Below are positions 12,025 through 58,179 of a stretch of 64,000 bases of DNA, in pieces (position 1 is the stretch's first letter; each line of letters starts with the position of its first letter). The position numbers were made by a program, and so were the translations under genes. The DNA is from an uncultured Desulfobacteraceae bacterium. Lineage in GTDB: Bacteria > Desulfobacterota > Desulfobacteria > Desulfobacterales > CAZWAE01. The notes below the pieces were generated by a model, which did no database searches, was not told the origin of the DNA, and was given only the letters and a program-made list of their open reading frames with translations. The stretch spans positions 190 to 64,189 of the forward strand of contig CAZWAE010000001.1 of NCBI GenBank assembly GCA_964631805.1, in the 5' to 3' direction.

Positions 12025-12028
12025 TGGA

Positions 12029-25670: not shown

Positions 25671-25756
25671 AGGTTCCGTATGTTGTGTGTTGTCCGTTAT
25701 AGGTTTGGGTTTTGGAAGCGGGTTGTGAGTCCAACAGCAAATTGGCTTTTTAGACT

Positions 25757-35500: not shown

Positions 35501-35509
35501 TTTTCCCAT
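32504..35509 (-). CDS. secreted FecR-domain protein with a giant Ala/Thr/Gln-rich repeat region, (PTDAPL)n and (TTA)n repeats
   Basis: Signal peptide plus a FecR domain (GDIVSYTGNVVVRS...RAEVRMVDGSEMRL...TPTMVAAIRGTDF). A low-complexity region of ~650 aa follows, with a 78-aa periodicity. Then come 7x PTDAPL + 2x PTDAPP, a TTA/TTV run, and the short tail TTPYTGHIDDDERLAVLMADELAGK. Confidence 0.8.
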   Translation of the reverse strand: MGKRILVYVIALSMIFPFHAFVYQTDANAQKDSGTSAKIGDIVSYTGNVVVRSKGKWGKLKKVPFPVYNSDKIVTTSGRAEVRMVDGSEMRLDVNANITLNQKREKRGLFSRGKVVSRRVDVLLGKIMFNIKRKKTGPKFNVRTPTMVAAIRGTDFPIEVTGDGSTSYDVIGDADVTGGQKITVPKDQQMKASDVAVPVSELPAGDPQVEKLPFQQAAQKALGTQTQATQLDNAAKDRAKKLNRKAPAHRAELAKTKAEAARTTASAGVTAAEAGVEEALRFNRKIEGKTISYRQNTLDSILAWLANAYSSLIATAYAQETNAQLAAAQAALNNAQSALQEANNRYQAVQEAARVATRSGVSTVAAQAAAAAAWAAAQAAAAQATVASAQANVAAASGNPDEAAAASAAAAQAATAASQATAAAQTAQQQVAVVEQAVATGNTAAADAAAAAAQAASSAAQANASAAEATTEVATAAATGQAEQAQAAQTAADAAINTATQAQTAADTASTQATTAATATGAAAEAAAAAAQASAAAAQANAATADANANVATAQAEGDTTAAAAAQTAANNAAQAATQAQTVAETANTQATTAATATGAAAEAAAAAAQASAAAAQANAATADANANVAAAQAEGNTAAAAAAQAAADNAATAATQAQTVAATADTQAQTAATATGAAADAAAAAAQASAAAAEATAATAEANSDVAFAQAAGNTEAAAAAQTAVAATQTAANQAQTAANTASNIATAAATAPTEAGAQAAAEAARAAAASAEANAAVADANSFAASAQAVGDTNTAQQATAAANTAATTAQQATQAADSANQLATQAATATNEADAQALADQVTQQADTAQQTAESTTNVITTNTEQIVQSTDLPPTDAPLPTDAPLPTDAPLPTDAPLPTDAPLPTDAPLPTDAPLPTDAPPPTDAPPPTATTATTATTATTATTATTATTVTTATTATTATTVTTTTTSAPTTTPYTGHIDDDERLAVLMADELAGK
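32600..32714. repeat. 9-bp coding tandem repeat (gttgtRgcY)n encoding (TTA/TTV)n
   Basis: About 12 consecutive 9-bp units seen directly, in frame within CDS 32504-35509. Confidence 0.85.
32715..32876. repeat. 18-bp coding tandem repeat x9 encoding PTDAPL/PTDAPP
   Basis: Nine units of ggcRgYggYgcatcYgtN counted from 32715 to 32876, in frame within the CDS. Confidence 0.9.
33000..34200. repeat. 234-bp (78-aa) coding tandem repeats, ~4-5 copies with decaying identity
   Basis: acgttggcgttggcatc recurs at 33624 and 33858 (234-bp offset). The protein unit is ATADANANVA..TATGAAAEAAAAAAQASAAAAQANA. Confidence 0.8.
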
Positions 35510-38228: not shown

Positions 38229-39206
38229 TCATGTCATCCTTTTCCCATGACCCTCAGATACTTCAGGCAGGCTCATCTCTGCAACCAGATAATTGGGGCG
38301 CCGCTTGACCTCCATGAAGGTTTTTCCGATATATTCACCACATAGGCCTATAAAAATCAGCTGAATACCACCCAGCAAATATACCCCGGCCATGACCGAA
38401 AGCCAGCCGGAAACGGCTTTTGTGGTAAAGAATTTGATACACAACGCATACAAAACGTATGAAAAACTGGAAAGCGCGATGACAACACCGGCGATAGCCG
38501 CCGCACGTAATGGGAAAACAGTAAACGCCGTGATCCCGTTTACTGCGAGACTCAACATTTTTCTCAGTGAATATTTGCTCTTTCCCATATATCGAGGTGA
38601 TGGGGTATATGGAATCTCGTATTGTCTGAATCCCAGCCATGCGATCAGCCCCCTGTAGAAAATCGTACTCTCGTTAAAACGCTTGAGGGAGTCCACCACT
38701 TTCCTGTCCATGAGCCTGAAATCCGCCGCGCCATGCTTGAGATCGAAGTCCGTTAGTTTATTCAGCAAGCGATAGTACCATCCGGCAGATTTTCGCTTGA
38801 GTCTCGAGAAATCCTTAGCATCGCGTCGGGTCGTAAACACAACATCATAGCCCTCCTGCCATTTTTTCAGCATTTCTGGGATCAGATCAGCCGGATGCTG
38901 CAAGTCACCGTCCATGGTGATCACGGCATCACCGGAACTCCAGTCCAATCCGGCCCGGATGGCATTCTGGTGGCCGAAGTTCCTGGAAAAGGAAATAAAG
39001 TATATATTCGGTTTGGCAGCTGATGCTGCTTTGATGATCTCAAGGGTTCTGTCAACACTCCCATCATCAACGAACAAGATATCGTAGCTTATCTCAATAT
39101 CGTCGAGAATGGCCAGTGCATCAATGGCCGCTGAAATATTTTCCTCCTCATTAAAAACCGGAATGACGACTGTGGCCTTCTGTACTTTTGGATTTTCCAT
39201 ATGCAC
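38229..39206 (-). CDS. family 2 glycosyltransferase, polyprenyl-phosphate sugar synthase type (ArnC/DPM1-like) with C-terminal TMs
   Basis: VVIPVFNEEENI...FVDDGSVDRT...DGDLQHP motifs and two C-terminal TM helices. The likely true start is the ATG at 39200; the ORF-track start is a GTG at 39206. Confidence 0.88.
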   Translation of the reverse strand: MHMENPKVQKATVVIPVFNEEENISAAIDALAILDDIEISYDILFVDDGSVDRTLEIIKAASAAKPNIYFISFSRNFGHQNAIRAGLDWSSGDAVITMDGDLQHPADLIPEMLKKWQEGYDVVFTTRRDAKDFSRLKRKSAGWYYRLLNKLTDFDLKHGAADFRLMDRKVVDSLKRFNESTIFYRGLIAWLGFRQYEIPYTPSPRYMGKSKYSLRKMLSLAVNGITAFTVFPLRAAAIAGVVIALSSFSYVLYALCIKFFTTKAVSGWLSVMAGVYLLGGIQLIFIGLCGEYIGKTFMEVKRRPNYLVAEMSLPEVSEGHGKRMT

Positions 39207-39221
39207 GCCTTCGCCCGGCTA

Positions 39222-39375
39222 TCCGTTCACCGCTTTCAGTTTACTGTTTACTGCTCAATAGCTCATTAGCTTTTTAGCCTAAAGGCTGTTAGCAAAAACC
39301 TATACGCCTAAATGCCTTCAGCCTGATCAGCTAATTATTCCTGCTCACCGCTTTCAGTTTACTGTTTACTGCTCC
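39222..39375. repeat. heptamer tract interrupted by R-element copy B, flanked by a perfect 29-bp direct repeat
   Basis: caccgctttcagtttactgtttactgctc occurs at 39228-39256 and again at 39346-39374. The 89 bp between them contain the R copy (39271-39339). Confidence 0.85.
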
Positions 39376-41139
39376 TATTTTCAATATACTTCACAACTGC
39401 CCCCCTGAGCCCGATATTGCCTATCGGGAGGATACCAATGACAACCGATCGTTCCGGATAATAGTTCCAGATTTGATCCACAGCCAACATGACCTTTTTT
39501 TCTTCACTTTTAATCTCAAAAGAGGTCCTAAACAGCTTCTGGAACTTTGTGATCGCCGCCTTTCGATCCTCCACCACCTCGCTATGCGAACCGCTTTGGC
39601 CAGTTTCCGCAAAATGGGTCGACCGCCACACCCAGTACCAGGCGCTGTTGAACAAGATGCCCGGCCGTCTGGGCGCATACCGAACCGCCTGATCAAAACA
39701 CCGATCCCCACAGCGAAAGGGTCGCGGCGTCTATACCAGACGCGGAGCATCCGGGTTATAAAAAAAACCGTCCCGACCAGCACGAGAATAAACCCGGAGA
39801 CACCCAGTTCGGCACCCAGAGTGACCCAGTCGTTGTGCAGATTACCGCCAGTCAGCCGCCGAGCGAATTCAGGCGCCGGAGCCGGAGGGGCATATCGCGG
39901 ATATAAAGAGGGCAGCCCCCCCATGCCGACACCGGCGACCGGGTATTGGTAAACCATCGGCAGCGCTACCCGTGTTTCCAGCATCCTGTTGTCAAACTGA
40001 CGTTCTATGGACTGGAACTTGTTGAGGGTCCGATCGATACCGATATAGTATCCGTAGCCAAATATGACCAGGCAGACGGCCATAGTCCCCAATGCCTGCC
40101 GGCGATACTGCGCTTTCGCCATAAAGAGCAGACTCACCAGCAACATGGAGATGGAAGCTGCTAGAATGCCCCCCCTGGATCCGGACAGCAGCAGGGCGAT
40201 GCCGACGATGAGGGTAATGTAAAAAAAGAGCGCCACCCGGGAACGGCCAGATTCCGAGAGCGCGCGATGCAGCTTTTTCTTGAATCCCTGCTTTACTGTC
40301 GTTCGTTCAGAGCGGCTTCGGTCAACTTTCCCGCGAAGCGCCACCACATATCCCAAGCCCAGACTGGCGATCATCTCCATGTACCCGGCAAAATGATTGG
40401 ACCCTATAAATGTACCGCTGGCCCATGCGACCCGGCTGGGCCACCACCATACATTCGGCCTGGGGCTGAACACCTGGTAGATGGCATAAACCGCCTCGAA
40501 ACAGCCCACCAGCAGCAACACGGTCACCAGCATCTCTATCCGTTTATGGGTATTTGCTGAGTTTAGCACCAGAAAAAAGAGTGCCGCATAAGTGGCCATC
40601 TTGAGCCACTCGACACCTGTGGCATGGCGGTTGTATGTCAGGGGTATCCAGCCTGAAAAGGCCCGTTCCGGTTGGGTGTCCCGCGCCAAAAGTTCCATCA
40701 ACGGCGCTTTATCCGCAGCGGTTTCCGGAGACAGAAACGCCACCAGAGCAGGAGGCATGGGGATTGCCTGCAGCATCCCGATCAGCAAAAGAACAAGAAT
40801 GAACCCGCCTAAAGGCGTCCGCACCCATGACCATTCCACATGCTGACGTGAAAAAATCTTATCGAGCAGATACAATAGCCCCAACGAGAACACGCCGATT
40901 TGGACTACCGTATACGCCCATACGTGGCGCAAACCGAAGGCCAGCGGTGCGAACACCAGTAAAAGGATGATTCCCCCAAAAACGATCCGGTCAGGGGTTA
41001 GGAGGCCGGATCGAGACTTTTTGAGGGTCGTTTTTCGCCGTCTGTCGGCCAATAAAAAATCTTTGAAGGAAATGTGAGATGTAGCGGTGAGTCTGCTTAC
41101 AGCTAACCTGATCATTTTACCCCCGCTCACTCTCGACAA
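39359..41139 (-). pseudogene. Wzy_C-TPR paralog 2, disrupted by a ~589-bp internal deletion with frame change
   Basis: Roughly 85-95% DNA identity (by eye) to paralog 3 on both sides of a junction at 39699-39707 (caccgatcc). In paralog 3 the two matching 9-mers lie at 48861-48869 and 49450-49458. The C-terminal 98-aa ORF (39359-39655) is in a different frame from the 572-aa ORF (39421-41139). Confidence 0.75.
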
Positions 41140-41227
41140 TCGACTGCTTACAATTTCTTATCGATCAATTGTTGAGACCCCTTGCTGACTCGCGGTCAAG
41201 CCCACCATCAAATGCCGATATTCCGTC

Positions 41228-41256
41228 TTGACATCGGATTATTATCGTATTATTAT
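41228..41256 (+). promoter_or_regulatory. sigma70-like promoter of the Phd/RelE cassette
   Basis: TTGACA (41228-41233), 17 nt, TATTAT (41251-41256). It overlaps the short inverted repeat cgtat-N4-atacg, a candidate operator. Confidence 0.5.
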
Positions 41257-41276
41257 ACGAATTATTTTCCAATTTT

Positions 41277-41564
41277 GTGGTGGGAGAATATAAGATGCAT
41301 TCAAAAGATTATTTGTCAGCGACCTCGCTTTCCAAAAAAACATCTGCCACGTTAGATTCACTTGAAAAAGGAGAATCTGAAAAGCTGATCATTCTAAAAA
41401 ACAATTCACCCAAAGCGGTCCTTATGTCCATGGAAGCCTATGAGATCATGGAAGAAGAATTGGAAGATTTGAGACTGACCGCTCTTGCCATTTCACGCTT
41501 GCAGAGCTTCGATCCTGATAGCATGCTCACACATGAAGAATTGATGGCTAAGTTTGCCAAATGA
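41277..41564 (+). CDS. Phd/YefM-family antitoxin
   Basis: SATLDSLEKGESEKLIILKNNSPKAVLMSMEAYEIMEEELEDL is a typical Phd/YefM fold sequence. The probable start is the ATG at 41295, preceded by GGGAG. It overlaps the toxin gene by 4 nt. Confidence 0.85.
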   Translation: MVGEYKMHSKDYLSATSLSKKTSATLDSLEKGESEKLIILKNNSPKAVLMSMEAYEIMEEELEDLRLTALAISRLQSFDPDSMLTHEELMAKFAK

Positions 41565-41845
41565 CTTGGTCAATTTTATACCACCCGGATGTTGAGGATG
41601 ATCTAAAAAGCGTGGGTCCTTCCATGGCTCGCAGGATAATGCGATCCATCGACGCGAAACTCACCCAAGCTCCTTTACAGTTTGGCTCCCCACTATCCGG
41701 AAATCTGGGCAGCTTTCGTAAACTTCGGGTTGGTGACCACAGGGTCGTTTACCAAGTTCAGGGGAAAACGATCATTGTTTTTGTCCTGGCGGTCGGCGCT
41801 CGGAGAGACAAAGAAATCTATAGGTCTGCACTGAAAAGAAAATAG
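41561..41845 (+). CDS. RelE/ParE-family toxin
   Basis: 94 aa; LSGNLGSFRKLRVGDHRVVYQVQGKTIIVFVLAVGARRD is the canonical RelE/StbE core. Confidence 0.88.
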   Translation: MTWSILYHPDVEDDLKSVGPSMARRIMRSIDAKLTQAPLQFGSPLSGNLGSFRKLRVGDHRVVYQVQGKTIIVFVLAVGARRDKEIYRSALKRK

Positions 41846-42006
41846 CCCAGCGAAGCTACAATTCACCAGCTCAACAGCTATACAAAATGTGAACGGAAAG
41901 CAGTGAACTTAAAACAGGGAAATGGCCATTGTAAGCAGTAAGATGTGAACAGTGAAAAATATGTACATTTACGAATAATTTTTCTGTTTCCCCTGCTCAC
42001 TGCCGA
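41846..42006. repeat. heptamer tract in mixed orientation (GTRARCR units followed by ctgctcac units)
   Basis: gtgaacggaaagcagtgaac...gtaagcagtaagatgtgaacagtgaaaaa, then ...ctgtttcccctgctcactgccgactg. Confidence 0.65.
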
Positions 42007-42152
42007 CTGTTCACCGCTTACCCTTTTCCTTTTTTCACGCGAATTGATACTGCGGATAAGACCATTCAGCATCGCTGAAATGGTCCTACTTCTCTCCAAT
42101 AAATCTTGGGAACAACCATGATCCATGAACTCGAGTTCCCGTGCAATATAAT
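42007..42152 (-). pseudogene. 3' fragment of a four-helix-bundle (S23-IVS/Avd family) gene
   Basis: Minus-strand reading YIARELEFMDHGCSQDLLERSRTISAMLNGLIRSINSREKRKRVSGEQ aligns with the C-terminus of the intact copy at 46378-46758. The N-terminal two thirds are missing and the original stop is lost. Confidence 0.65.
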
Positions 42153-42335
42153 GTTCTACTGGGCCGAAGTTTGCTTGGGTTGTCCGAAAAGATCATAACG
42201 GCTTTCAAAGGAAACAACGCCCCCTATCAAACGGAATAAAGGCGGAATGCGCAAATATGTGAAGCAATTTTCATCTTGATATTGCGACAAATTTAGGATA
42301 AACGATATGGTGTATTTTTTATGCGATAAAAGGAG

Positions 42336-42602
42336 GTGCAAAACATGCAGCCAAACCCACGAACTAAAAAAGCCAGACTCAATATTCAAATCTCCTCTGA
42401 ACTTAAAAACAAACTTTATCAACTGTCCGCTAATCAAGGTAAAAAAGTCTCTGTCCTAGTTAGAGAATCCATTGAAGAAAAGCTGGAACAGATTAATAAA
42501 AAGATATTTGAGGAAAAAATGAAGTGCGCCTACCAAGGGTTGGCACAGGAAAACATGGAAGTTTCAGAAGATTTCAAATACGTTGATACCGAAAACCTTT
42601 AA
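42336..42602 (+). CDS. ribbon-helix-helix (CopG/MazE-like) antitoxin
   Basis: KKARLNIQISSELKNKLYQLSANQGKKVSVLVRESIEEKL is an RHH motif. The likely start is the ATG at 42345, 8 nt after AGGAGG. It lies directly upstream of the mazF-like gene. Confidence 0.75.
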   Translation: MQNMQPNPRTKKARLNIQISSELKNKLYQLSANQGKKVSVLVRESIEEKLEQINKKIFEEKMKCAYQGLAQENMEVSEDFKYVDTENL

Positions 42603-42614
42603 CGAGCGTAACGT

Positions 42615-42893
42615 ATGGCTAATATTCAAGTTAAACGAGCCGATATCCATTATGCGAACCTTGATCCGGTTGTGGGAAGAGAAACAGGAAAAACCCGGCC
42701 TGTGCTTGTGATTCAAAATGATATCGGCAACATGTACTCACCAACGACCATTGTAGCGGTGATTACTGAATATTCAGAAAAAAAGGCATCCTATCCCATC
42801 TGTGTGGCCATCAAAAAGGGAAATGGCCTCAAAAAAGACTCAATTGTTAATTTGTCCCAGATTAGAACTATTGATAAAAACCTATACGCCTAA
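42615..42893 (+). CDS. MazF/PemK-family endoribonuclease toxin, C-terminally truncated/replaced
   Basis: ADIHYANLDPVVGRETGKTRPVLVIQNDIGN...TIVAVIT...KDSIVNLSQIRTIDK is the MazF core. The last 5 codons and the stop (KNLYA*) are supplied by R-element copy C. About 20-25 C-terminal residues expected in the family are absent. Confidence 0.8.
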   Translation: MANIQVKRADIHYANLDPVVGRETGKTRPVLVIQNDIGNMYSPTTIVAVITEYSEKKASYPICVAIKKGNGLKKDSIVNLSQIRTIDKNLYA

Positions 42894-42932
42894 ATGCCTT
42901 CAGCCTGGTCAGCTAATTATTCCTGCTCACCG
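42876..42932. repeat. R-element copy C (5'-truncated)
   Basis: 57 nt identical to 39294-39350 except for one a/g difference. Confidence 0.9.
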
Positions 42933-43134
42933 GCGACCGCTCACCGCTTATCGATACTCCGTTTTCCCCCTGCTCACCGCCGCCTGTTAACTGTTTACCC
43001 CGTGAAATCTGTTTTCAAGTAGCTATTTCACCGGGGCCCACTTTATTTTCCACCTGCTCAACAGCTTACCAGCTCATCAGCCCAATAGCTTACCAGCTCA
43101 ACAGCTAATCTGCTTAACAGCTGTAATCTATTGA
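42933..43134. repeat. degenerate 7-8 nt periodic tract including 9 consecutive octamers (CAGCTYAN)
   Basis: ctgctcaa|cagcttac|cagctcat|cagcccaa|tagcttac|cagctcaa|cagctaat|ctgcttaa|cagctgta at 43054-43125. A hairpin lies at 42998-43036. Confidence 0.8.
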
Positions 43135-43500
43135 TTACAAAACACACTCCGTATCCCCAGGCATATACTCCGGAACAATCTCTTTGAATTTATCTCGTAT
43201 CCCACATCCATCCTGTTTTTCGGCCAACTGGTGCAATTCTTCGATCCCCTCAATCAACCATTTCTTATAGCTTTCCTGATCGCCGTACCCGTTAAAATTT
43301 TCCCCGGCACGAATCACCTTGATCTTTTCGTGTCCGGTTTCGACGATCCCTTCGCCCTCTGTGATCAATTCTTCATAAAGCTTCTCGCCGGGACGGAGGC
43401 CCGTGTAGACGATCTCGATGTCTCGATCAGGCTCCTTCCCGGACAGCCGGATCAGATCTTTGGCCATATCCACGATCTTTACCGGTGTGCCCATCTTCAA
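43135..43500 (-). pseudogene. CapD/WbpM-type polysaccharide biosynthesis protein, C-terminal fragment (copy 1, frame intact)
   Basis: MGTPVKIVDMAKDLIRLSGKEPDRDIEIVYTGLRPGEKLYEEL matches the C-terminal region of CapD/PglF-type 4,6-dehydratases. The ~500 N-terminal residues are absent, and homology ends where AT-rich DNA begins (~43505). Confidence 0.75.
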
Positions 43501-43512
43501 TATAATAGATCC

Positions 43513-43541
43513 TTGACATAAAAGAAAATGTGCCTCATAAT
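43513..43541 (+). promoter_or_regulatory. sigma70-like promoter of the DUF4258/YgiT cassette
   Basis: TTGACA (43513-43518), 17 nt, CATAAT (43536-43541), within an AT-rich block. Confidence 0.5.
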
Positions 43542-43805
43542 AATTATAAATATTTAATATCAGTAGTTTATATATTGAAATAGCATTGAGAAGGCACGTT
43601 GCCGAAAATCATCTGCCGTGAAGCTAACCGTCTCCCGAATCGCTTAGCTCGTGAGCCACTTGATTTTATACACTATCTCAATTTCAAACATACCCGCGGA
43701 GATTCATCGGTCGATCATTTACGTGCTACCCCAAAAGCCGGTGATGGACCCAATTTGGGACAACTCCGATGACGATGCTTGGAATGACCTGCAAACCTCG
43801 TAATC

Positions 43806-44135
43806 TTGATGAATCAGCGATTGTCAGAATATTTAGCAGCACCTCTTGATGAATGGACTATCGAATATCGTGTTCATGCAACCCAACGTATGTTCAAACG
43901 TCGTATCGATGAGAAAGACGTCATGCAATTGCTTGCCAAGGGAACAATTATCGAGGAATATAAGGACGATTTCCCTTTCCCGAGTGTATTGGTAAACGGT
44001 GTATCAGGCGATAACAGGCCATTACATGCTGTTTTGGGGATTGATGACAATCTTTCCCGGCTTTATCTGATCACCATCTATGAACCCGACTCCAATAAAT
44101 GGGCGGAAAATTACAATAAGAGGCTATCGCCATGA
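43806..44135 (+). CDS. DUF4258-domain protein (putative toxin)
   Basis: 109 aa; YRVHATQRMFKRRIDEKDVMQLLAKGTIIEEY...LHAVLGIDDNLSRLYLITIYEP is the DUF4258 pattern. The likely start is the ATG at 43809. It overlaps the next gene by 4 nt. Confidence 0.75.
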   Translation: MMNQRLSEYLAAPLDEWTIEYRVHATQRMFKRRIDEKDVMQLLAKGTIIEEYKDDFPFPSVLVNGVSGDNRPLHAVLGIDDNLSRLYLITIYEPDSNKWAENYNKRLSP

Positions 44136-44356
44136 AATGTGCAATCTGCCGGAATGGGCACACAGTAAAGGGGCATATCACGGTGGTTCTTGAAAGAGAA
44201 CAATCCACTCTTGTGTTTAAAAAAGTTCCCGCAAAGATCTGCGAAAACTGTGGTGAGGAATACTTATCCGAAGAGATCAATCGGAAACTTTTAGAAAGGG
44301 CCCGGGAAGCAGTCGAAAGAGGTGTAGATCTGGAGCTGTTACGATTTGCGGCCTAA
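44132..44356 (+). CDS. YgiT-type zinc-finger protein (MqsA N-terminal-like, putative antitoxin)
   Basis: MKCAICRNG...KICENCGEEYLSEE carries the CxxC...CxxC zinc ribbon of the YgiT/MqsA family. Confidence 0.8.
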   Translation: MKCAICRNGHTVKGHITVVLEREQSTLVFKKVPAKICENCGEEYLSEEINRKLLERAREAVERGVDLELLRFAA

Positions 44357-44470
44357 TTCACCTACACCTTTGTCCAGCTTGGATATTTTGGTGCGGATTT
44401 TCGCCTTGTCGGATTGAAAAGATACATGGACTGCCCATCCGTATATTTCACAAATTGATACGAATTCTTA

Positions 44471-44636
44471 GGCTCCGCTCTCCCGTCCTCACCTTCTCAT
44501 GCACTTCCCGCTCTCACGCTCTTACGCCTCATGCTTTCTCGCTCTCCCACCTCACGCCCTTCCCGCTCTCACGCCTAACGTTCTCACGCTTACGATTCCC
44601 CTGCTCACTGACACCTGCTTACAGCTCACCTCGTCG
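44471..44636. repeat. degenerate 7-8 nt periodic tract (CGCTCTYA/CGCCTCA units)
   Basis: cgctctca|cgctctta|cgcctca|tgctttct|cgctctcc|cacctca|cgcccttc|ccgctctca|cgcctaa|cgttctca|cgcttac...ctgctcactg. Confidence 0.75.
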
Positions 44637-44946
44637 TTACAACACACACTCCGTATCCCCAGGCTGATATTCCGGTACCATCTCCTTGAACTTCTCACGA
44701 ATACCGCAACCATCCTGTTCATCCGCCAATAGGTAAAGCTCATCGATTTCTGCCATCAGCCATTTCTTGAAGCTTTCCTGATCGCCGTGTCCATTAAATT
44801 TTCCCGACACGGATTATCTTGATTTTTTCATGACCGGTTGTAAAGATCCCCTCCCCCTCTGTAATCAACTCCTCTTATAGCTTTTCTCCCGGACGCAGGC
44901 CGGTATAAACAATATCTATATCCCTATCCGGCTCCTTTCTGGACAG
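44637..44946 (-). pseudogene. CapD-like C-terminal fragment, copy 2 (nonsense + frameshift)
   Basis: The minus strand reads LSRKEPDRDIDIVYTGLRPGEKL*EELITEGEGIFTTGHEKIKIIRVGK. After a 1-nt deletion it continues NGHGDQESFKKWL...GCGIREKFKEMVPEYQPGDTECVL*. Confidence 0.7.
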
Positions 44947-45136
44947 GTCTACCCCGTCAATATATGATTCCTGATGAGGATTATTCATTTCCGTGACCCT
45001 AAAATCCTGCCGGTCAGTGTCTTTTTGAAATAGAAGGCGATTCATGTGGCCAGCGATAAAATATCAATTGACATAATTACCATAATAATGTTAATTATGA
45101 TTAACACTTTCCCACTCATAGCAGAAAGTATACTTT

Positions 45137-46351
45137 ATGGAATATTGGTTTTCCGAACAAACGGCAAGGCTTCGGTCTCTTCCTGAAACCAGGCGCTACC
45201 TTTATCATGATATCGATTGGTCCGGTCGCTGTGTCGGCCTTTTGGGCGCCCGCGGTACGGGAAAAACCACCCTGATGTTGCAATACCTTCTCGAAAACTT
45301 CCCTGGATCTGACAAAACCCTTTACGTTTCCGTGGATCATCCCAAATTTCAAGCCCTATCCCTTTATGAATTCGGTCGTGAATTTTCTCAATACGGCGGA
45401 AAGATCCTTTTTCTGGACGAAGTTCATAAATATGACCGGTGGGCAAGCCATATCAAAACCTTGTATGATTCATGCCCTGATCTGCGGATTATCTTTTCCG
45501 GATCGAGCTTGCTGCAGTTGCAGGTTCAAGATACCGATTTGAGCCGTCGCGCGGTATTCTACCACCTGCACGGTCTATCCCTGAGGGAATTTTTATTTTT
45601 CCAGCAAAACATTGTCTTTCCCGTCATTGATTTCAACGATCTGATCGAGAATCATATATCCCATTCACAGCAAATCTGTCGGAAAATAAAACCTCTTGAA
45701 CATTTTCGTAATTACTTACGATATGGCTATTATCCGTATTTCACAGAGGGCATAGATGTCTATCCCATGAAACTCAATGAAGTTATCAAACAAGTGCTGG
45801 AAACGGATCTGCCTTTTGTCGGACATGTGGATACCCGACAAATCTCAAAACTGAAAAAGCTAATATATCTTTTAGCGATCAATGTCCCTTCTCAGGTCAA
45901 TATTCAAAAGCTTTCGGCAAGTACAGAAATATCCAGGCCCAAGGTCTATGAATATTTGGAATATCTCAAAAAGGCGCGTCTACTTCATTTAATCAGGGGA
46001 GGAGAAACAGGCTATAAAATCCTATCCAAGCCTGATAAGATTTTTCTGGAGAATCCCAATTTGGCCCATGCATTGGCAGATACAGTCAATACAGGTACGA
46101 TCAGAGAAACCTTTTTCGTCAATCAAGTAACCAATGCGTTTGACCGTTATCCATCTTTGGCCAAAAGTTCAATTACGACCGCACGGCACGGTGATTTTAC
46201 AGTACTGGAGCAATTTAGTTTTGAGATCGGCGGTCGGACCAAGGGAGCCAGGCAAATCAGGGGGATTGACAATGCTTTTATTGCCTCGGACGATTTGGAG
46301 ACCGGATTTTCCCATAAAATCCCGCTGTGGCTATTTGGATTTCTCTACTAA
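45137..46351 (+). CDS. AAA+ ATPase, AAA_14/DUF4143 family (COG1373-like)
   Basis: 404 aa with Walker A GARGTGKTT, Walker B ILFLDEVH and a C-terminal DUF4143-like region. Confidence 0.85.
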   Translation: MEYWFSEQTARLRSLPETRRYLYHDIDWSGRCVGLLGARGTGKTTLMLQYLLENFPGSDKTLYVSVDHPKFQALSLYEFGREFSQYGGKILFLDEVHKYDRWASHIKTLYDSCPDLRIIFSGSSLLQLQVQDTDLSRRAVFYHLHGLSLREFLFFQQNIVFPVIDFNDLIENHISHSQQICRKIKPLEHFRNYLRYGYYPYFTEGIDVYPMKLNEVIKQVLETDLPFVGHVDTRQISKLKKLIYLLAINVPSQVNIQKLSASTEISRPKVYEYLEYLKKARLLHLIRGGETGYKILSKPDKIFLENPNLAHALADTVNTGTIRETFFVNQVTNAFDRYPSLAKSSITTARHGDFTVLEQFSFEIGGRTKGARQIRGIDNAFIASDDLETGFSHKIPLWLFGFLY

Positions 46352-46377
46352 CCGGTTTTCTGCGACCTGCTCACTGT

Positions 46378-46758
46378 TTACTGTTCACCGCTTACTCTTT
46401 TCCTTTTTCCACGCGAATTGATACTGCGGATAAGACCAATCAGCATCGCTGAAATGGCCCTGCTCCTCTCCAATAAGTCTGTGAAAAAATCCTGATCAAT
46501 ATATTCCAGTTCTTTTGCAATATAAAGCTGCGTTCTTAGTTCCCCGCATGACCCTTTCGCAATATTCAGGAAGCGGATAAAATCCCGGGGGCTGTTCCGC
46601 TCATATCCCTCGGCAATGTTCGAGGGAACTGACACAGCAGCACGACATATCTGATCCTTAAATCCATAGTCCCGACATTCTTTGAAAACTCCATAGATAT
46701 CAACTGCCAACCGACATCCTCTCTTCCACACCTCCAATCCCTCAAACCCCTCCGACAT
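46378..46758 (-). CDS. four-helix-bundle protein (23S rRNA intervening-sequence / Avd family)
   Basis: LEVWKRGCRLAVDIYGVF...RAAVSVPSNIAEGYERNSPRDFIRFLNIAKGSCGELRTQLYIAKEL is the TIGR02436-type signature. The ORF is open to 46794, but M13 (46758) gives the family-typical N-terminus. Confidence 0.85.
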   Translation of the reverse strand: MSEGFEGLEVWKRGCRLAVDIYGVFKECRDYGFKDQICRAAVSVPSNIAEGYERNSPRDFIRFLNIAKGSCGELRTQLYIAKELEYIDQDFFTDLLERSRAISAMLIGLIRSINSRGKRKRVSGEQ

Positions 46759-46794
46759 TTCACATTCCCTTCCCGCTCCCAGCCTCCAGCTCAC

Positions 46795-46876
46795 CGCTCA
46801 CTTTCCAATCCCCCGCTTACTGTCCACTTCCTTCATTCCCCTGCTCACTGCCCCCCGCTTACAGCTCACATCGTCG
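46795..46876. repeat. degenerate heptamer tract
   Basis: ctcaccgctcactttccaatcccccgcttactgtccac...ctgctcactgccccccgcttacagctcac. The last ~45 nt are shared with 44594-44636. Confidence 0.7.
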
Positions 46877-47062
46877 TTACAACACACACTTCGTATACCC
46901 AGGCATATATTCCGGAACAATTTCTTTGAATTTATCTCGTATCCCACACCCATCTTGTTTACTCGCTAACCTATAGAAGTCCTCGATTCCAGCGAACAGC
47001 AACTTCCTGAAGGTTTCCTGATCCCCGTGTCCGTTGAAATGGTCACCGGTCCGGAAGATCTC
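46877..47062 (-). pseudogene. CapD-like C-terminal fragment, copy 3 (shortest)
   Basis: The minus strand reads EIFRTGDHFNGHGDQETFRKLLFAGIEDFYRLASKQDGCGIRDKFKEIVPEYMPGYTKCVL*, collinear with the last ~60 residues of copy 1. Confidence 0.65.
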
Positions 47063-47184
47063 TCCTTTTCCGAATCCACAGTTCCGGCTGATCCGTTAAA
47101 ATATTATCTGTACATCTTGCCACAACTTATGCTATTCCACGACAAATATAACAATTTACATGTATATTGACGGAGTTCAAATAA

Positions 47185-48348
47185 ATGTACAAAAGAATCC
47201 TCTGTTTGCCTGAAACGCCTCGAAAGAGCTTTTTCCTTTGGGGCCCCCGTCAAACGGGAAAAACCACTCTGCTGAAATCGCATTATCCTGATGCTTTCCG
47301 AATCGACCTGCTTAAAACCGATGAATTGGTGCGCTACGCGAAGAATCCATCCCGTCTGCGGGAAGAGGTTACAGCGCTTTCAGCTGAAACATTGATCGTA
47401 ATCGACGAAATTCAGAAAGCCCCCGCTCTCCTGGACGAAATTCATTACATGATTCAGGAGAAACGAAGTGTTTTCGCAATGTGCGGCTCGAGTGCAAGAA
47501 AAGTTAGACACGGCCACGCAAACCTGTTGGGCGGACGCGCCATGCGATACGAACTGTTTGGGCTGGTTTCGGAAGAGCTTGCCGAAGACTTTTCCATTGG
47601 TCATTTCGTCAACACGGGTCCGCTTCCTGAACACTACGGGGCCGAATCCCCCCACCTGGCGCTCCGCTCCTATGTTGAGGATTATCTGCGCGAAGAAATT
47701 CTGCAGAAGGGTCTGACACGCCGGTTGCCTTTGTTTTCCGACTTTCTCCGAGTGGCAGCTATCGGAGACACAGAAACGGTGAACATGTCCAACATCGCCC
47801 GGGAGACGGGAATCGCGGTCTCAACGGTCCGGGATCATTTTGGAATACTGGTAGATACCCTGATCGGTGCGTTTCTTCCGGCTTTTACGTTGCGTCCCAA
47901 ACGCCGCACTATCCAGGCCCCCAAATTTTATTTCAGGGATCTGGGAGTGGTTAACCATCTGGCAAGACGAGGTATCGTCAGGCCTGGTTCTGAGCTATTC
48001 GGAAAAGCCTTTGAAAACTGGCTGTTTCACGAGATCTCCGCTCATACTCGATACAGCGAATTGTTTTATGATATTTCGCACTGGCGGCTTTCCAGCGGTA
48101 TTGAAGTTGACTTCATTCTGGGCCCCGGTGCCATCGCCATCGAGGCAAAAGGCAAGCATCGCATTACCACCAGCGACACAAAGGGGCTTCTTAATTTCAA
48201 AAAAGATTTCCCTTCGGTCAAGCAACTGCTCATCCTCAGTCTTGAGGAACGGCCACGGCTCACTAAAGATGGCGTCCACATCCTGCCTCACAGGAAATTC
48301 GCCAAATCTCTTTGGCAGGGAAAATGGAATTCAGATCTTGCTCAGTAG
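47185..48348 (+). CDS. AAA+ ATPase, AAA_14/DUF4143 family (second, divergent)
   Basis: 387 aa with Walker A GPRQTGKTT, Walker B LIVIDEIQ and a C-terminal DUF4143-like region. Confidence 0.85.
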   Translation: MYKRILCLPETPRKSFFLWGPRQTGKTTLLKSHYPDAFRIDLLKTDELVRYAKNPSRLREEVTALSAETLIVIDEIQKAPALLDEIHYMIQEKRSVFAMCGSSARKVRHGHANLLGGRAMRYELFGLVSEELAEDFSIGHFVNTGPLPEHYGAESPHLALRSYVEDYLREEILQKGLTRRLPLFSDFLRVAAIGDTETVNMSNIARETGIAVSTVRDHFGILVDTLIGAFLPAFTLRPKRRTIQAPKFYFRDLGVVNHLARRGIVRPGSELFGKAFENWLFHEISAHTRYSELFYDISHWRLSSGIEVDFILGPGAIAIEAKGKHRITTSDTKGLLNFKKDFPSVKQLLILSLEERPRLTKDGVHILPHRKFAKSLWQGKWNSDLAQ

Positions 48349-48351
48349 TTC

Positions 48352-48526
48352 ACAAGCTTTACCAGATCCCTGCCCCCCCCATTCACTTCTCACCAGCTTA
48401 TCAGTTCAATAACTCAGTAGCTCTTTTCCTGCTCGCTACCTGCCCAGCAAAATTTATCCTGTGAAACCTTTTTGTCGCTGTTTCTCTGGAACCCGTTTTT
48501 GTCATTGTTTCACCGGGGCTCACTAC
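48352..48526. repeat. degenerate periodic tract plus hairpin downstream of Wzy_C-TPR paralog 3
   Basis: ttcacttctcaccagcttatcagttcaataactcagtagctc..., with the hairpin cctgtgaaac...gtttcaccgggg at 48458-48518. Confidence 0.65.
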
Positions 48527-50881
48527 TCACATCTTTTTATTTTTTATATACTTCTCCACCTCATCCTTAAGCCCATCATGCCCCGCCGGCAAAATGCCCA
48601 GTACCGCAGATCTGTTCGGATAATAGTTCCAGATTTGATCCACGGCTGTGAGCACCTTTTTTTTATCTGTTTTAATCTCAAAAGAGTTCCGGAACAATTC
48701 CTGGAACTTTATGATCGCCGCCTTATTGCTTGCCACAACCCCACTCCGATGTTTGTCCTTATTTGTTTCGGAAAAGTGCGTCGACCGCCAAACCCAGTAC
48801 CAGGCTGCATTGTACAAAATGCCCGGTCTTCTTGGCGCACAGCGCACCGCCTGCTCAAGACACCGGTCCGCCGCCGGCAGCCAATTTGTAGAATGGTTTT
48901 CTGAATCGTAGTTTTTATAGGAATAACGGTACCCCAAATCATGCCAATAATTGGCCTCCGCCGGATTGCAGCGCAGCGCATTTTCAAGGCTTTCAATGAC
49001 ATGCTCGTTGATTTCCCGGCGTTGTTTCTCATCAGCAGCGGGAGTTTTCATGTAGTGGAGGGCCTTCTTGTGATGGTATTTGGCGTTGAAAGGATTCAAC
49101 CTGATGGCCGCCTCGATATCAGGAAGGTCCGGGTCATAGTTCAGGTTCAGGGTAGAATTCCACTCTGTGGCGCAATGGGCTTCAGCCAGGAAGTGTCTGA
49201 CGGAGGCAGTCATCAGGAGGCAGTAAACTGGAATAATCAATACCGTCAAAATTAGGCGGCGCAAAGGCGTCAACCGAACACGCCTTACCCGGTACATGAA
49301 TCGTTCGCGACGCCCCTTTCGGTACCGGTGAACCGCTGAGTACCCGATAGCGGCAATGGCGGCAAGGGTCATCGGATTGGCCGGGACCCGCATATTGAGT
49401 TCAACATAGCTGTGAATGCCGATGGAGATAATACCGGCCACCGCGCCCGCACCGATCCCCACGGCGAAAGGGTCGCGGCGTCTATACCAGACGCGGAGCA
49501 TCCGGATTATAAAAAAAACCGTTCCGACCAGCACGAGAATCAACCCCATGATACCGAGTTCTGCCCCCAATGTAACCCAGTCATTGTGTAAATATCCGGC
49601 TCCTAATTCATTAAATAGGGCCGTTGGCGCATAGCGGGTGTATAACGATGGCAGCACCCCCATCCCCAAACCGGTAAACGGATAATCGTATATCATTGGG
49701 GCAGCCACCAGTGTTTCCATCATCCTCTTTTCAAATTGTCCCTCTATCATTTTGAATTTAGCTAAGGTTCGATCAATACCAGTGCTATACCCATAGGCAA
49801 AAATGATAAGGCAAATGGCCGACGCCATTACAGCCTTCTTACGATAACGCTGTTTTGTTATAAAAATTAGGCATACTAGTAGCATTGTGACCAAAGCCGC
49901 CAGAATCCCCCCCCTTGAGGCAGACTGGAGTAAAGCAACGCCAACAGTTACGGAAATATACAAAAAAAGGGCCAACTGGATAAATGAGGTATTTGACAAA
50001 TACTGATACAGTTTTTTCTTAATCCCTTCGACAGATGTCGAATGTTCAGGTAGGATTTGTGACGCTTTCTCACGCAGGGCTACAAGGTAACCAAATCCAA
50101 GAAAAACGATCAATTCCATGTAACCGGCGAAATGATTGGATCCAATAAAGGTTCCGCTAGCCCATCCCTCAACTCCGATTCGACTCGGCCACCACCACAC
50201 ATACGGTCTGGGACTGAACACCTGGTAAATGGCATAGACCGCCTCGAAACAGCCCACCATCAGCAGGGCAACTACCAGCACCTCCATTCGTTTTCTAGTA
50301 TTGGCCGTATTGAGCACTAAAAAAAACAGTGCCGTATAAGTGGCCATCTTGAGCCATTCGATACCTGTGGCATGCTGGTTGTATGTCAGGGGTATCCAGT
50401 CTGAAAATAACCGGTCCGGATGGGTATCCCGCGCCAGGAGTTCCAAAAGCGGCGCTTTATCCGTAGCGGTTTCCGGAGACAAAAACGCAACCAGCTCCAT
50501 CGGTAGGGGAACGGTCTGAAGTATCCCAATCAGTAAAAAAGCAAGAATGAACCCGTCGAGAGGCGTCCGCGCCCATGACCATTCCATCTGCTGTCGTGAT
50601 AAAATTTTGTCCAGCAGATACAACAACCCCAACGAGAACACGCCGATTTGAACTAACGTATACGCCCACACGTGGCTCAAACCGAAGGCCAGCGGTGCAA
50701 ATACAAGCAAAGCAATTATACCGCCAATAACAATCCGGTCGACAGTCACCTGCCCGGGCTTGGAGGTCTTGATTTTTTTACGGTGTTTGGAAATCGAAGA
50801 AAATCCAGAAAAATAGAGGACAATAAGCAATATAGAGCGTTTAAACGCATCTACGGGGAGGAGGTATTGGACCGGCGTCAA
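48527..50881 (-). CDS. Wzy_C (O-antigen ligase/polymerase-like) membrane protein with C-terminal TPR domain, paralog 3 (intact)
   Basis: 784 aa with the same architecture as 35876-38125 (SASRGGIL...GLGMGVL...GYLHNDWVTLGAELG) and a TPR-like C-terminus. High DNA identity to pseudogene 39359-41139. Confidence 0.8.
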   Translation of the reverse strand: MTPVQYLLPVDAFKRSILLIVLYFSGFSSISKHRKKIKTSKPGQVTVDRIVIGGIIALLVFAPLAFGLSHVWAYTLVQIGVFSLGLLYLLDKILSRQQMEWSWARTPLDGFILAFLLIGILQTVPLPMELVAFLSPETATDKAPLLELLARDTHPDRLFSDWIPLTYNQHATGIEWLKMATYTALFFLVLNTANTRKRMEVLVVALLMVGCFEAVYAIYQVFSPRPYVWWWPSRIGVEGWASGTFIGSNHFAGYMELIVFLGFGYLVALREKASQILPEHSTSVEGIKKKLYQYLSNTSFIQLALFLYISVTVGVALLQSASRGGILAALVTMLLVCLIFITKQRYRKKAVMASAICLIIFAYGYSTGIDRTLAKFKMIEGQFEKRMMETLVAAPMIYDYPFTGLGMGVLPSLYTRYAPTALFNELGAGYLHNDWVTLGAELGIMGLILVLVGTVFFIIRMLRVWYRRRDPFAVGIGAGAVAGIISIGIHSYVELNMRVPANPMTLAAIAAIGYSAVHRYRKGRRERFMYRVRRVRLTPLRRLILTVLIIPVYCLLMTASVRHFLAEAHCATEWNSTLNLNYDPDLPDIEAAIRLNPFNAKYHHKKALHYMKTPAADEKQRREINEHVIESLENALRCNPAEANYWHDLGYRYSYKNYDSENHSTNWLPAADRCLEQAVRCAPRRPGILYNAAWYWVWRSTHFSETNKDKHRSGVVASNKAAIIKFQELFRNSFEIKTDKKKVLTAVDQIWNYYPNRSAVLGILPAGHDGLKDEVEKYIKNKKM

Positions 50882-56622: not shown

Positions 56623-58179
56623 CTAGGCAGGCAGGGTTTCTCGAATGGCCTTATTCCTTTCAGTCCGGGAAAGCCGTAGGGCGACATGGGATAGGCTAAA
56701 GTAAAGAAACATCCAGATATCCAAGCCATACTCGCTGTTGGCCAGGTACTGAACGGAGACACCACAGAAGGTTGACAGGATGATATTCGCGTAAATGAAC
56801 AATCTGAGGTTATGACCTCTCTTGGAAATTGATCTTGCCTTCATCAGATTTTTAATTGAAGCAATGTATAGAACCGTAATTGCGAAAAAACCGATCACAC
56901 CATTATCGATTAGCCATGACACATAAAAGCTGTGAACCGATGAATACAGTCTTGAATAGACGCCCACAGCGTACACACCCAGGATCTCTTTTGAAGAACC
57001 CAGACCATAACCAAATATGGGATTTTCGAAAAAGGGCTCGACGAGTAGTACCCAACGACCGATTCTGAGCCTCAAGCTACTGCCGCCATAGGGATGGTTG
57101 TGGGTCCTGGCTGAACTTGTAAAATGATCGATCAAACCGAATTGTTCAACGGCGATGACAATTGCTAAAAAAACCGCCAGACAGAGCAAAAGGATCCTAG
57201 TTTTTCTTTGAGCCAACATATCCCTGCTGATGGACAACAGACAGAATACGATCAATGCACAAGCAACACCAACATAAACCGCCCGAGTATACGTCAACAA
57301 AATGGCCGTGATCAGGAAAGCCGATATAAGAAACGCGGTAAGCACCTTTTTACCCTTCTCAACAAGTAGGAATGAAAGAACAAGGCACAAAGCCGGCATA
57401 ATTCTTTCAGCGGTAGCTCCAGCAGAATGTCCGGTTGCCGCAGTCAAGCGCCTTTCATAAAAATAAAACAGCTCTTGGTTGGGGGTGATCAAGACAAGGC
57501 CGTAATACTGCAGAAAACCCTGTACCGCCAGACAAATGCCAATGACGATCAGGGTCCAGAAAAAGATGGTTAGCTTTCTTTCGGAGTTGACCAGCCAAAC
57601 AACCAGAATGGATATCAATATACCATTGAAAAAGAAAAAATAGGGCTCACGCTGAACCCTCCCGAATCCTGACATTACCTTCGGATTGAAGAACATTTCA
57701 TAATCGAGCACTCGGGGCAGGCTCGAAATAAAGACAGCCGAAACCATAATAAAAAGGACGACTTTGAACGAGATGGACAACTCCTGCGTCATGGGACCAG
57801 AAAATGGCTCCCTTTTGATTCGGTTTTTATAATACACCGAGAAAAATATCAGCGCCAAAATCAGCGTATACGAAGACTGGAGCATACTGCCGTACTTGAA
57901 AAGACCTATAGGCAGGAGGTGCCTCGCCAGGTAAAATACCAAAATCCCGTAAAAGGGGTTCTTTATGATCACTGTGAACATGAAAAACGCAACGAGTGGG
58001 AAAATGGGAATGGCGACGCTATATACCATTTTCCCTGCCTGCATACAGTATATCAATACAATGACCGAAAAAATAACAAATAGAAAACCAATAGCCGGAA
58101 AGGCATTCCCGCTCATGCGATTTGACCCGACATTCTGCATATGAATGGATTTAACTCCGTCTGATCTTGAAATAAGCAT
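56623..58179 (-). CDS. O-antigen polymerase/ligase-like polytopic membrane protein (Wzy type)
   Basis: 518 aa with ~12 TMs and a Wzy_C-like loop (TYTRAVYVG...NPIFGYGLGSS...SVHSFYVSWLIDNGVIG). No TPR tail. Confidence 0.7.
   Translation of the reverse strand: MLISRSDGVKSIHMQNVGSNRMSGNAFPAIGFLFVIFSVIVLIYCMQAGKMVYSVAIPIFPLVAFFMFTVIIKNPFYGILVFYLARHLLPIGLFKYGSMLQSSYTLILALIFFSVYYKNRIKREPFSGPMTQELSISFKVVLFIMVSAVFISSLPRVLDYEMFFNPKVMSGFGRVQREPYFFFFNGILISILVVWLVNSERKLTIFFWTLIVIGICLAVQGFLQYYGLVLITPNQELFYFYERRLTAATGHSAGATAERIMPALCLVLSFLLVEKGKKVLTAFLISAFLITAILLTYTRAVYVGVACALIVFCLLSISRDMLAQRKTRILLLCLAVFLAIVIAVEQFGLIDHFTSSARTHNHPYGGSSLRLRIGRWVLLVEPFFENPIFGYGLGSSKEILGVYAVGVYSRLYSSVHSFYVSWLIDNGVIGFFAITVLYIASIKNLMKARSISKRGHNLRLFIYANIILSTFCGVSVQYLANSEYGLDIWMFLYFSLSHVALRLSRTERNKAIRETLPA

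Follow-up and report, generated by a model that had tools for sequence, protein, structure and literature searches.

The 64,000-nucleotide stretch of contig CAZWAE010000001.1 analysed here (the window) contains, within an exopolysaccharide (EPS) operon, a 7.4-kb array of five compact cassettes, all on the plus strand and antisense to the operon. The cargo consists of three type II toxin–antitoxin (TA) pairs and two AAA_14-DUF4143 ATPases. The array is best explained as a collection of small cassettes, selfish or defensive, that occupy an intergenic hot spot in the EPS operon of a marine Desulfobacterota-like bacterium. It was probably, though far from certainly, built and shuffled without an integrase, by recombination at repeated modules comprising a gene end and a periodic tract, together with illegitimate joins. 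The best clue to the stacking mechanism, which the first-pass annotation of this DNA had left unnamed, is the presence of 5′-truncated 3′ ends of genes between the cassettes.

Read along the minus strand, the order is wzy3-(AAA2)-capD fragment 3-four-helix-bundle gene-(AAA1)-capD fragment 2-(YgiT/DUF4258)-capD fragment 1-(MazF/RHH)-four-helix-bundle fragment-(ParE/Phd)-wzy2 pseudogene-GT2, where brackets denote the antisense cassettes. Cassettes 2–5, four of the five, have a 5′-truncated 3′ fragment of an EPS gene 100-300 nt off their promoter side (three of capD, one of the four-helix-bundle gene), and the 3′ end of each cassette adjoins a periodic tract located after the stop codon with which the preceding minus-strand gene or fragment ends. 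The capD fragments are 3′ ends of Polysacc_synt_2 genes. Fragment 1 contains an intact open reading frame (ORF) of 121 codons (43135-43500), with homology reaching about 43513; its similarity to full-length capD stops at 43505-43513, exactly at the start of the TTGACA of cassette 3. Frame analysis of fragment 2 revealed one in-frame stop and one frameshift, and fragment 3 keeps about 68 codons. Fragments 2 and 1 form direct repeats around cassette 3 (312 nt at 77%), and fragments 3 and 2 form them around the four-helix-bundle gene and cassette 4 (204 nt at 79%); blastn aligned 44595-44798 with 46835-47038 at 79% nucleotide identity. The four-helix-bundle fragment is 77% identical to residues 91-138 of the intact gene (tblastn), with 85% nucleotide identity between 41992-42151 and 46366-46525 (blastn) and a ratio of nonsynonymous to synonymous divergence (dN/dS) of 0.34. 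The first-pass annotation had described the CapD fragments, the four-helix-bundle gene and fragment and the 7-8-nt tracts as minus-strand debris. All of these parts are present, but they are not random debris, being ordered on the promoter sides of the cassettes.

The three capD fragments differ from one another by 22-25% at the nucleotide level, almost wholly synonymously (dN/dS 0.05-0.12, dS 1.2-3.2), and a six-frame search found no intact capD in the 64-kb window. The low dN/dS, together with dS above 1, suggests that the fragments diverged while they were part of working capD genes. Given the synonymous divergence and the absence of capD from the window, they look imported along with the cassettes rather than decayed in place. 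They would have been turned into fragments only recently, since fragment 1 is still open and fragment 2 has acquired only one stop and one frameshift.

The arrangement is shared, with 99.99-100% identity, by at least 10 contigs of independent metagenome assemblies (JGI, ENA and Logan), and so is not an assembly artefact; the sampled population is clonal and fixed at the array locus. The re-annotation covered 39.3-50.9 kb and employed ORF lists, Pfam, NCBIfam and PADLOC (Table 1). The array sits at the coordinates stated in the first-pass annotation, and the identities given there for its five plus-strand units were borne out by Pfam, NCBIfam and PADLOC, as was, by Pfam and PADLOC, the description of an accessory islet rich in TA modules and COG1373-type ATPases. 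The promoters assigned earlier to at least two units can be recognised as sigma-70-like sites with 11/12 matches, in terms of consensus agreement only: TTGACA-17-TATTAT at 41228-41256 in cassette 1 and TTGACA-17-CATAAT at 43513-43541 in cassette 3. A search for defence systems, proposed in the same annotation, was performed with PADLOC; both ATPases match the family PDC-S01 and are candidate defence genes. The MazF of cassette 2 matches profile positions 1-84 of 109 (Pfam), its C-terminus being cut at 42876 by a junction with a 57-nt intergenic repeat, which matches the wzy2-GT2 spacer at 98% identity. It is probably inactive, while the other toxins look full-length in sequence.

Table 1. Features of the cassette array and its immediate flanks (window coordinates)
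Feature	Position	Strand	Evidence or remarks
GT2	38229-39200	-	EPS gene next to wzy2
Intergenic repeat element between wzy2 and GT2	39201-39374	-	heptamer tract, 57-nt core, hairpin
wzy2, disrupted Wzy_C(-TPR) paralog, left bracket	39359-41139	-	Pfam Wzy_C E=4.8e-16
Cassette 1	41228-41845	+	promoter-like site, Phd/YefM antitoxin, ParE/RelE toxin
Phd/YefM antitoxin	41277-41564	+	PF02604, TIGR01552
ParE/RelE toxin	41561-41845	+	PF05016, TIGR02385; 4-nt overlap with Phd
Four-helix-bundle 3′ fragment and downstream heptamer tract	41987-42175 (fragment 42007-~42175)	-	promoter side of cassette 2
Cassette 2	42336-42893	+	RHH antitoxin and MazF/PemK toxin, 12-nt gap
RHH antitoxin	42336-42602	+	PF01402, under its curated cut-off
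MazF/PemK toxin	42615-42893	+	PF02452, E=1.6e-23; C-terminus truncated
capD 3′ fragment 1 and downstream 8-nt tract	43052-43513 (fragment 43135-~43513, tract 43052-43122)	-	PF02719 positions 228-291 of 293, E=6e-17
Cassette 3	43513-44356	+	promoter-like site 43513-43541, small ORF, DUF4258, YgiT/MqsA-like
Small ORF of cassette 3	43599-43772	+	ORF list
DUF4258 toxin-like gene	43806-44135	+	PF14076, E=2e-21
YgiT/MqsA-like zinc-finger antitoxin	44132-44356	+	PF15731, TIGR03831; 4-nt overlap with DUF4258
capD 3′ fragment 2 and downstream tracts	44476-44958 (fragment 44637-~44958, tracts 44476-44631)	-	tblastn 75-79% to fragment 1
Cassette 4	45069-46351	+	TTGACA-containing leader and AAA_14-DUF4143 ATPase
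AAA1, AAA_14-DUF4143 ATPase	45137-46351	+	PF13173 E=4e-27, PF13635; PADLOC PDC-S01 E=3e-29
Intact four-helix-bundle gene (23S rRNA IVS protein)	46378-46794 (with tracts 46357-46871)	-	PF05635 E=2e-36, TIGR02436
capD 3′ fragment 3 and downstream tract	46835-47083 (fragment 46880-47083, tract 46835-46879)	-	tblastn 63% to fragment 1
Cassette 5, AAA2, second AAA_14-DUF4143 ATPase	47185-48348	+	PF13635 E=3e-22, PF13173 E=9e-18; PADLOC PDC-S01 E=2e-47
wzy3, intact Wzy_C-TPR gene (784 aa), right bracket	48527-50881	-	Pfam

A 91%-identical homologue of AAA1 led to metagenomic loci L186/L187. L186 is the same locus in a related species, as indicated by its GT2 (82% aa, 78% nt), the first wzy paralog, wzy1 (64% aa, 69% nt), and an Ala/Thr-rich protein (81% aa). 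In L186 the array directly follows GT2, with no wzy2, and consists of at least 12 cassettes on a single strand, again antisense to the EPS genes. Their cargo includes MazE/PIN, two AAA-DUF4143 genes, the AAA1 homologue, BrnTA, an HTH gene, MazEF, a 5′-truncated DUF4258 with YgiT, two more MazE/PIN, Phd/ParE and another AAA. Between the cassettes lie eight tracts of 8-nt period, homologous to window 43046-43122, and short remnants of capD; no intact capD was found at the L186 locus. Only three units are common to the two arrays, namely AAA1 (window 44899-46361, L186 7868-9329; 90% nt, capD-fragment/promoter junction included), YgiT (43991-44528 and 11649-12185; 96.5% nt) and Phd/ParE (77% nt), and they stand in reversed order on the same strand. 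The AAA1 and YgiT units are thus far more similar than the core genes (69-78% nt). Both the capD-fragment/AAA1-promoter junction and the adjacency of YgiT, tract and capD 3′ end are kept, while the 5′ and 3′ parts of window fragment 2 occur at different places in L186, which suggests recombination inside the fragments. An 8-nt microhomology marks the point in L186 where MazEF has taken the place of the 5′ half of DUF4258. Cassettes turn over and are reordered at this locus. The first-pass annotation had regarded the array as insertional rather than ancestral, and the other, larger cassette set found at the same place without wzy2 agrees with this.

Parallel arrangements were found in metagenomes by alignment of capD C-termini, a scan that returned mostly full-length genes; only the window and the loci L097/L098, L129, L144, L150 and L153 were counted as real fragment arrays. 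In L150, an intact capD is followed by antisense BrnT/BrnA and then by a capD fragment, with direct repeats of about 400 nt (78-85%) around an insert of about 860 nt that contains BrnTA. L153 has two cassette-fragment units following an intact capD, and L129 also begins with an intact capD and continues with alternating cassettes and fragments. L144 has antisense VapBC beside a capD fragment, and L097/L098 two capD fragments 93% identical over 486 nt with TA pairs between them; neither contains an intact capD within the contig. A full-length head gene followed by displaced 3′ fragments is accordingly present in L150, L153 and L129 and absent in the window, and an insert free of mobility genes between direct repeats longer than 30 bp occurs in the window, L150 and L097. 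Fragments compared with full capD in L150 and L153 gave dN/dS of 0.01-0.06, and the L097 fragment pair gave 0.12. The capD genes of L150 and L153 are 76% identical, whereas identity rises to 88-92% in a block of about 1.2 kb that comprises a 3′ gene remnant, BrnA, BrnT and the capD fragment; moreover, the L150 fragment is closer to the capD of L153 (91%) than to its own neighbouring capD (85%). The latter comparison, together with the dN/dS of 0.05-0.12 in the window, points to fragments derived from different functional, horizontally acquired alleles. Judged from these alignments, units made up of a cassette and a fragment move horizontally.

These comparisons bear on the view of the array as a static relic, according to which ancient tandem duplications of a wzy-capD-four-helix-bundle segment have eroded and the TA and ATPase genes landed there by chance. 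Such an origin would suit the age of the wzy2/wzy3 pair (dS about 1; mutually closest in the database), the fixed and invariant array of the sampled population and the general tendency of EPS loci to gather genes of this kind on both sides of capD. It requires, however, three independent truncations that spared the same 3′ portion of capD, each at the promoter side of a cassette, and it leaves unexplained the 90-96.5% identity of the L186 units against 69-78% for the core, their reversed order and the corresponding contrast in L150/L153 (88-92% versus 76%). The layout of intact capD, cassette and fragment also recurs in unrelated loci. Weakened already by the L186 comparison, this explanation appears quite unlikely.

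In the mechanism favoured here, a homology module comprises the final 50-125 codons of an EPS gene, in most cases capD and once the four-helix-bundle gene, together with the 7-8-nt tract after its stop; the modules alternate with cassettes, each of which has its own leader and putative promoter and lies antisense to the operon. Incoming DNA bearing a cassette, a gene 3′ end and a tract would recombine with a resident gene end. This entry, Campbell-type or homology-anchored, would duplicate or displace a long 3′ end of the target gene, and the non-homologous end would be sealed by illegitimate, microhomology joins. The product would be a cassette between long direct repeats, and repeated insertion would stack further cassettes. 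Recombination among the direct modules, within or between genomes, could then add, delete, reorder and export cassettes while keeping their strand; no dedicated integrase would be required, and TA addiction would hinder the loss of a cassette. Three successive insertions into a capD 3′ end can account only for the part between AAA2 and fragment 1; the distal part needs extra deletions. That RecA/host recombination, and not a trans-acting site-specific recombinase, was at work, that events followed the above order and that a full-length capD was lost from the head of the array, we infer.

Several observations weigh against this mechanism. The window lacks a full-length capD at the head, and the mechanism has to suppose either that capD was lost or that the array was imported ready-made. 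Cassette 1 borders on the 5′ end of the nearly full-length disrupted wzy2 and not on a 3′ fragment, so the fragment rule holds for four of the five cassettes only, and a capD remnant is kept in only two of about 10 L186 units. Exact matches between the fragment copies of the window reach only 20-29 nt, which is marginal for RecA, and present-day shuffling would therefore be rare. In about 35 loci, TA, AAA and four-helix-bundle genes flank capD on both sides at distances of up to 3 kb, which means that the capD 3′ end is not the sole entry point; its role as the only hot spot was rejected for this reason. Neither an empty site nor a polymorphism or circular form was seen among the population contigs, all identical to the window. 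The alignment with relatives suggested in the first-pass annotation yielded no empty site either: a scan of genome collections gave relatives of at best 46%, without synteny, the GT2 homologue in L189 is not syntenic, and the nearest relative, L186, itself carries an array. What the alignment did provide was the different and larger cassette set at the orthologous locus. Finally, 7 of 10 fragment 5′ ends cluster at capD residues 514-532 (514, 514, 517, 521, 525, 525 and 532; the others lie at 498, ~570 and 583), which could point to a site-specific process.

A process of this kind would be integron-like, with a trans-acting recombinase, Xer-type or unknown, acting on the tracts or on the ILDMGTPVKI-coding stretch of capD and moving the cassettes directionally. 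It would account for the single strand of all cassettes (5/5 in the window, at least 12 in L186) despite shuffled order, for the tract 3′ of nearly every L186 cassette and for the clustered boundaries, which come from at least three lineages; a gene for an Xer-type recombinase is, moreover, present in the window. This gene (10442-11377), the only recombinase in the 64 kb, nevertheless lies about 30 kb from the array in a conserved xerC-hslVU housekeeping context, with hslV and hslU alongside (8353-11377). No integrase was detected in or beside any array examined, nor was an IntI integrase found next to the array of the window, the sole tyrosine recombinase of the 64 kb being Xer-like. A search of both strands of 41000-48600 revealed no attC-like inverted repeat, that is, no RYYYAAC...GTTRRRY pair 47-150 nt apart (1.7 expected by chance), and an integron/attC nature of the array was rejected on these grounds. 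The fragment boundaries are spread over about 36 nt or, with the three outliers, wider; the homology of the shared units ends variously inside a toxin gene, 10 nt past a stop or inside a tract; and the tracts are direct-periodic, non-palindromic and of differing types. Directional movement by a trans-acting recombinase is therefore considered unlikely. As the first-pass annotation had stated, the array contains no integrase or transposase, and no tRNA was found in the window. Nor does the array carry an insertion sequence, and a search against Rfam gave no match reaching the gathering score anywhere in the window.

A wider conjecture, possible although doubtful, is that EPS operons of anaerobic Desulfobacterota-like bacteria support an integrase-free, integron-like capture in which the capD 3′ end and the directional tract serve as the recombination site, or in which an unrecognised recombinase acts on the tracts. 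If true, TA and single-gene defence cassettes would be cut out of arrays, pass between species and be stacked anew without a change of orientation.

The array is bracketed by two Wzy_C-TPR genes. The first-pass annotation correctly described wzy2 as disrupted and wzy3 as intact, but not the pair as near-identical: identity between the two genes is 69-72% at the amino acid and 73% at the nucleotide level, with dS about 1 (0.96-1.3) and dN/dS about 0.2. Its expectation that the pair would be closer to each other than to paralog 1 does hold, as both are only 35% identical (aa) to the latter; in a database of 5.8 billion proteins, wzy2 and wzy3 are mutually closest, bar one 61% homologue. Alignment by tblastn gave 69% over residues 24-477 and 66% over residues 670-782; wzy2 lacks the part corresponding to wzy3 residues ~478-669, and its last 113 codons lie in a different frame. 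The bracketing genes are thus old diverged copies and not a fresh direct repeat.

Direct wzy repeats around the cargo could be taken for att-like flanks left by a single larger integrative element or prophage that has lost its integrase and its ends. A contig of about 4.3 kb (L095; ENA ERZ27247866 k141_126496, 1-4415) from the same sample as L186, to which the end of L186 joins, carries a wzy gene (61% to wzy3), a four-helix-bundle gene with a frameshift and an AAA-DUF4143 gene. The contig begins and ends with the same 141 nt, a length equal to the assembler's k, and is therefore either a circle or a tandem repeat that was collapsed in assembly; a circle would be compatible with an integrative element. 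Against this stand the 27% nucleotide divergence of the wzy copies, the origin of the internal fragments from at least three capD alleles, the L186 array next to GT2 without the wzy2 bracket, and the absence of any phage, conjugation, integrase or replication gene from the array and the window. A single-element remnant is accordingly highly improbable.

Among known systems, the array is best filed as a variant of long-target-duplication insertions or of 3′-end-displacement arrays, with TA and candidate defence cargo. Insertion of restriction–modification (RM) gene units with long target duplication (Nobusato et al. 2000, cited in Furuta et al. 2010, PMC2853133) is described as involving no mobility genes; direct repeats of tens to hundreds of bp duplicate the target, often overlapping a gene 3′ end, and a life cycle of invasion, amplification through the repeats and release was proposed. 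A small addiction-type unit without mobility genes, long direct repeats, a gene 3′ end as target and the proposed life cycle are common to both. In the window, by comparison, the cargo is TA and AAA-DUF4143 instead of RM, several units are stacked, and the repeats are diverged alleles (dS above 1), not fresh duplicates; no genome with an empty site was found.

The second relative is found in Rhs, contact-dependent inhibition (CDI) and type VI secretion system (T6SS) effector–immunity loci, with their C-terminal displacement and orphan-module arrays (Jackson 2009, Poole 2011, cited in Kirchberger et al. 2017, PMC5361080). The mechanism proposed there is homology-facilitated illegitimate recombination without an integrase. 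The likeness lies in a full-length gene followed by displaced 3′ fragments with adjacent small genes, horizontally acquired. There, the 3′ ends are variable toxin tips and the linked genes their immunity partners, whereas here the 3′ end belongs to a conserved sugar dehydratase gene functionally unlinked to the cargo, the cargo is antisense and, in the window, the head gene is missing. The insertion topology is already described for RM genes and for Rhs, CDI and T6SS loci.

Chromosomal integrons and clusters of attC sites lacking integron integrases (CALIN) share with the array compact co-oriented cassettes, many of them TA, fast turnover between relatives and reshuffled order; here, in contrast, IntI, attI and attC were not found, each cassette has a promoter of its own, and gene 3′ fragments and direct-periodic tracts form the spacers. 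Makarova et al. are said to have noted in 2011 that COG1373-type ATPases and TA genes are enriched near defence genes. The gene content of the array (two PDC-S01 ATPases and three type II TA pairs) resembles that of defence or addiction islands, but the array is only 7.4 kb, has no validated defence system and lies inside an EPS operon, not in a tRNA/integrase hot spot. It also differs from integrase-borne genomic islands at a tRNA or gene 3′ end in that neither a tRNA nor an array integrase was found.

The spread of TA modules and small defence genes that lack mobility genes is poorly understood. The locus and its relatives provide a concrete architecture in which cassettes carry a piece of a conserved neighbour gene as a homology handle, and this architecture would explain the “pseudogene debris” in polysaccharide loci, the build-up of addiction and defence genes and the turnover of arrays between species. 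It is also a warning for annotation, as short “CapD-like” ORFs would be recombination scars and not genes. A free-living family of 119-121-aa CapD C-terminal proteins was considered and rejected, since most of the candidates are partial or split genes. The best 120 database hits to the CapD C-terminus are all short, most of them starting at a conserved internal Met of partial genes on short contigs; the other short CapD proteins derive from genes split by frameshifts in long-read assemblies (L099, L100, L181 and L185) or by in-frame stops (L182-184). In three independent contigs (L182 3571-3574, L183 3518-3521 and L184 1621-1624), capD is split into ORFs of 385-539 aa and 119 aa by a lone in-frame stop codon immediately upstream of the ILDMGTP-motif Met; this may represent recoding, an alternative genetic code or a shared nonsense mutation.

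The periodic tracts of 7-8 nt are located at 25732-25867, 39201-39374, 41987-42023, 42917-43122, 44476-44631, 46357-46414, 46835-46871 and 48384-48421, after the stop codons of minus-strand EPS genes and fragments; the last is a short tract downstream of the wzy3 stop, and the intact four-helix-bundle gene has heptamer tracts on both sides. Tandem Repeats Finder reported 43056-43122 (period 8, 8.4 copies) and 44476-44590 (period 8, 14.5 copies), as well as 46367-46396 and 39239-39271. The window tracts share the recurring sense-strand motif RGTGAGCAGGGGAA, and their type varies between copies; the heptamer tracts resemble short tandemly repeated repetitive (STRR) sequences, and the 8-nt version found eight times in L186 is of AGCT type. 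The tracts might act in RNA processing, protein binding or recombination. A dispersed intergenic element of about 115-135 nt, composed of heptamers, the 57-nt core and the hairpin AGCCTTTAGGCT, occurs in three copies (25732-25867, 39227-39374 and 42876-43003). According to blastn, the cores 39294-39350 and 42876-42932 are 98% identical, suggesting recent gene conversion or transposition, while 39256-39369 and 25732-25845 are 82% identical. A hairpin similar to AGCCTTTAGGCT follows the capD fragments of L097, where a Y1_Tnp gene lies just after the fragment array.

Other loci show further repeat structures. L161 has a Y1 transposase-like ORF of the type associated with repetitive extragenic palindromes (REP) at 8570-9256, downstream of capD in a repeat-rich stretch, and an AAA-DUF4143 gene between 129-nt direct repeats (94.6%) at 9391-10957. 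REP-like palindromes of about 30-48 nt are present in L153 in both orientations (125-161, 526-560, 730-769, 5203-5230, 5552-5583, 5758-5794 and 9437-9474), with copies just downstream of the capD stop and of the second fragment, B. A conserved piece of about 110 nt (L150 8441-8529, L153 5876-5989 and 8453-8565) combines the perfect hairpin GACTGAATTTTTCAGTC with the 3′ end of an antisense ORF encoding ...AAAFAEKDNL.GF.ED.DFQKE; it looks like a remnant of a replaced earlier cassette. In L171, a homologue of AAA2 (79% aa) stands next to a capD gene; the DNA homology ends at the gene borders, and the ends of a mobile unit were not located by this comparison. The EPS locus of a Gallionella metagenome-assembled genome (MAG) (L057, 900-8800) contains interleaved Phd/PIN, YhgA-like transposase copies, two four-helix-bundle genes and a DUF4160/DUF2442 pair, with many direct repeats of 130-400 nt at 70-97%, which suggests that repeat-flanked accessory insertions also occur outside Desulfobacterota. 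EPS operons in general are sinks for accessory genes of the TA, AAA and four-helix-bundle types.

All EPS genes around the array are encoded on the minus strand. They include three Wzy_C-TPR paralogs and genes for a hexapeptide transferase, a GFO oxidoreductase, Bac_transf, Wzz-kinase and Wza. A cyanobacterial origin, at which the STRR-like heptamers had seemed to hint, was rejected, as Wzy and GT2 have their relatives in Desulfobacterales, Desulfobulbales and cable-bacteria MAGs, at 46-57% identity. A further Wzy_C gene (518 aa, 56623-58179) brings the number within one cluster to four. An ORF of 1001 aa (32504-35509, minus strand) stands out by its GC content of 62-72% amid about 45-50%, and no Pfam match at E<=1e-6 was obtained for it. 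Its product, with 33% Ala, has a signal-like N-terminus, followed by about 600 Ala/Thr/Gln-rich low-complexity residues and then by (PLPTDA)n and (TTA)n runs; the first 73 residues are 81% identical to a cut-off gene at the end of L186.

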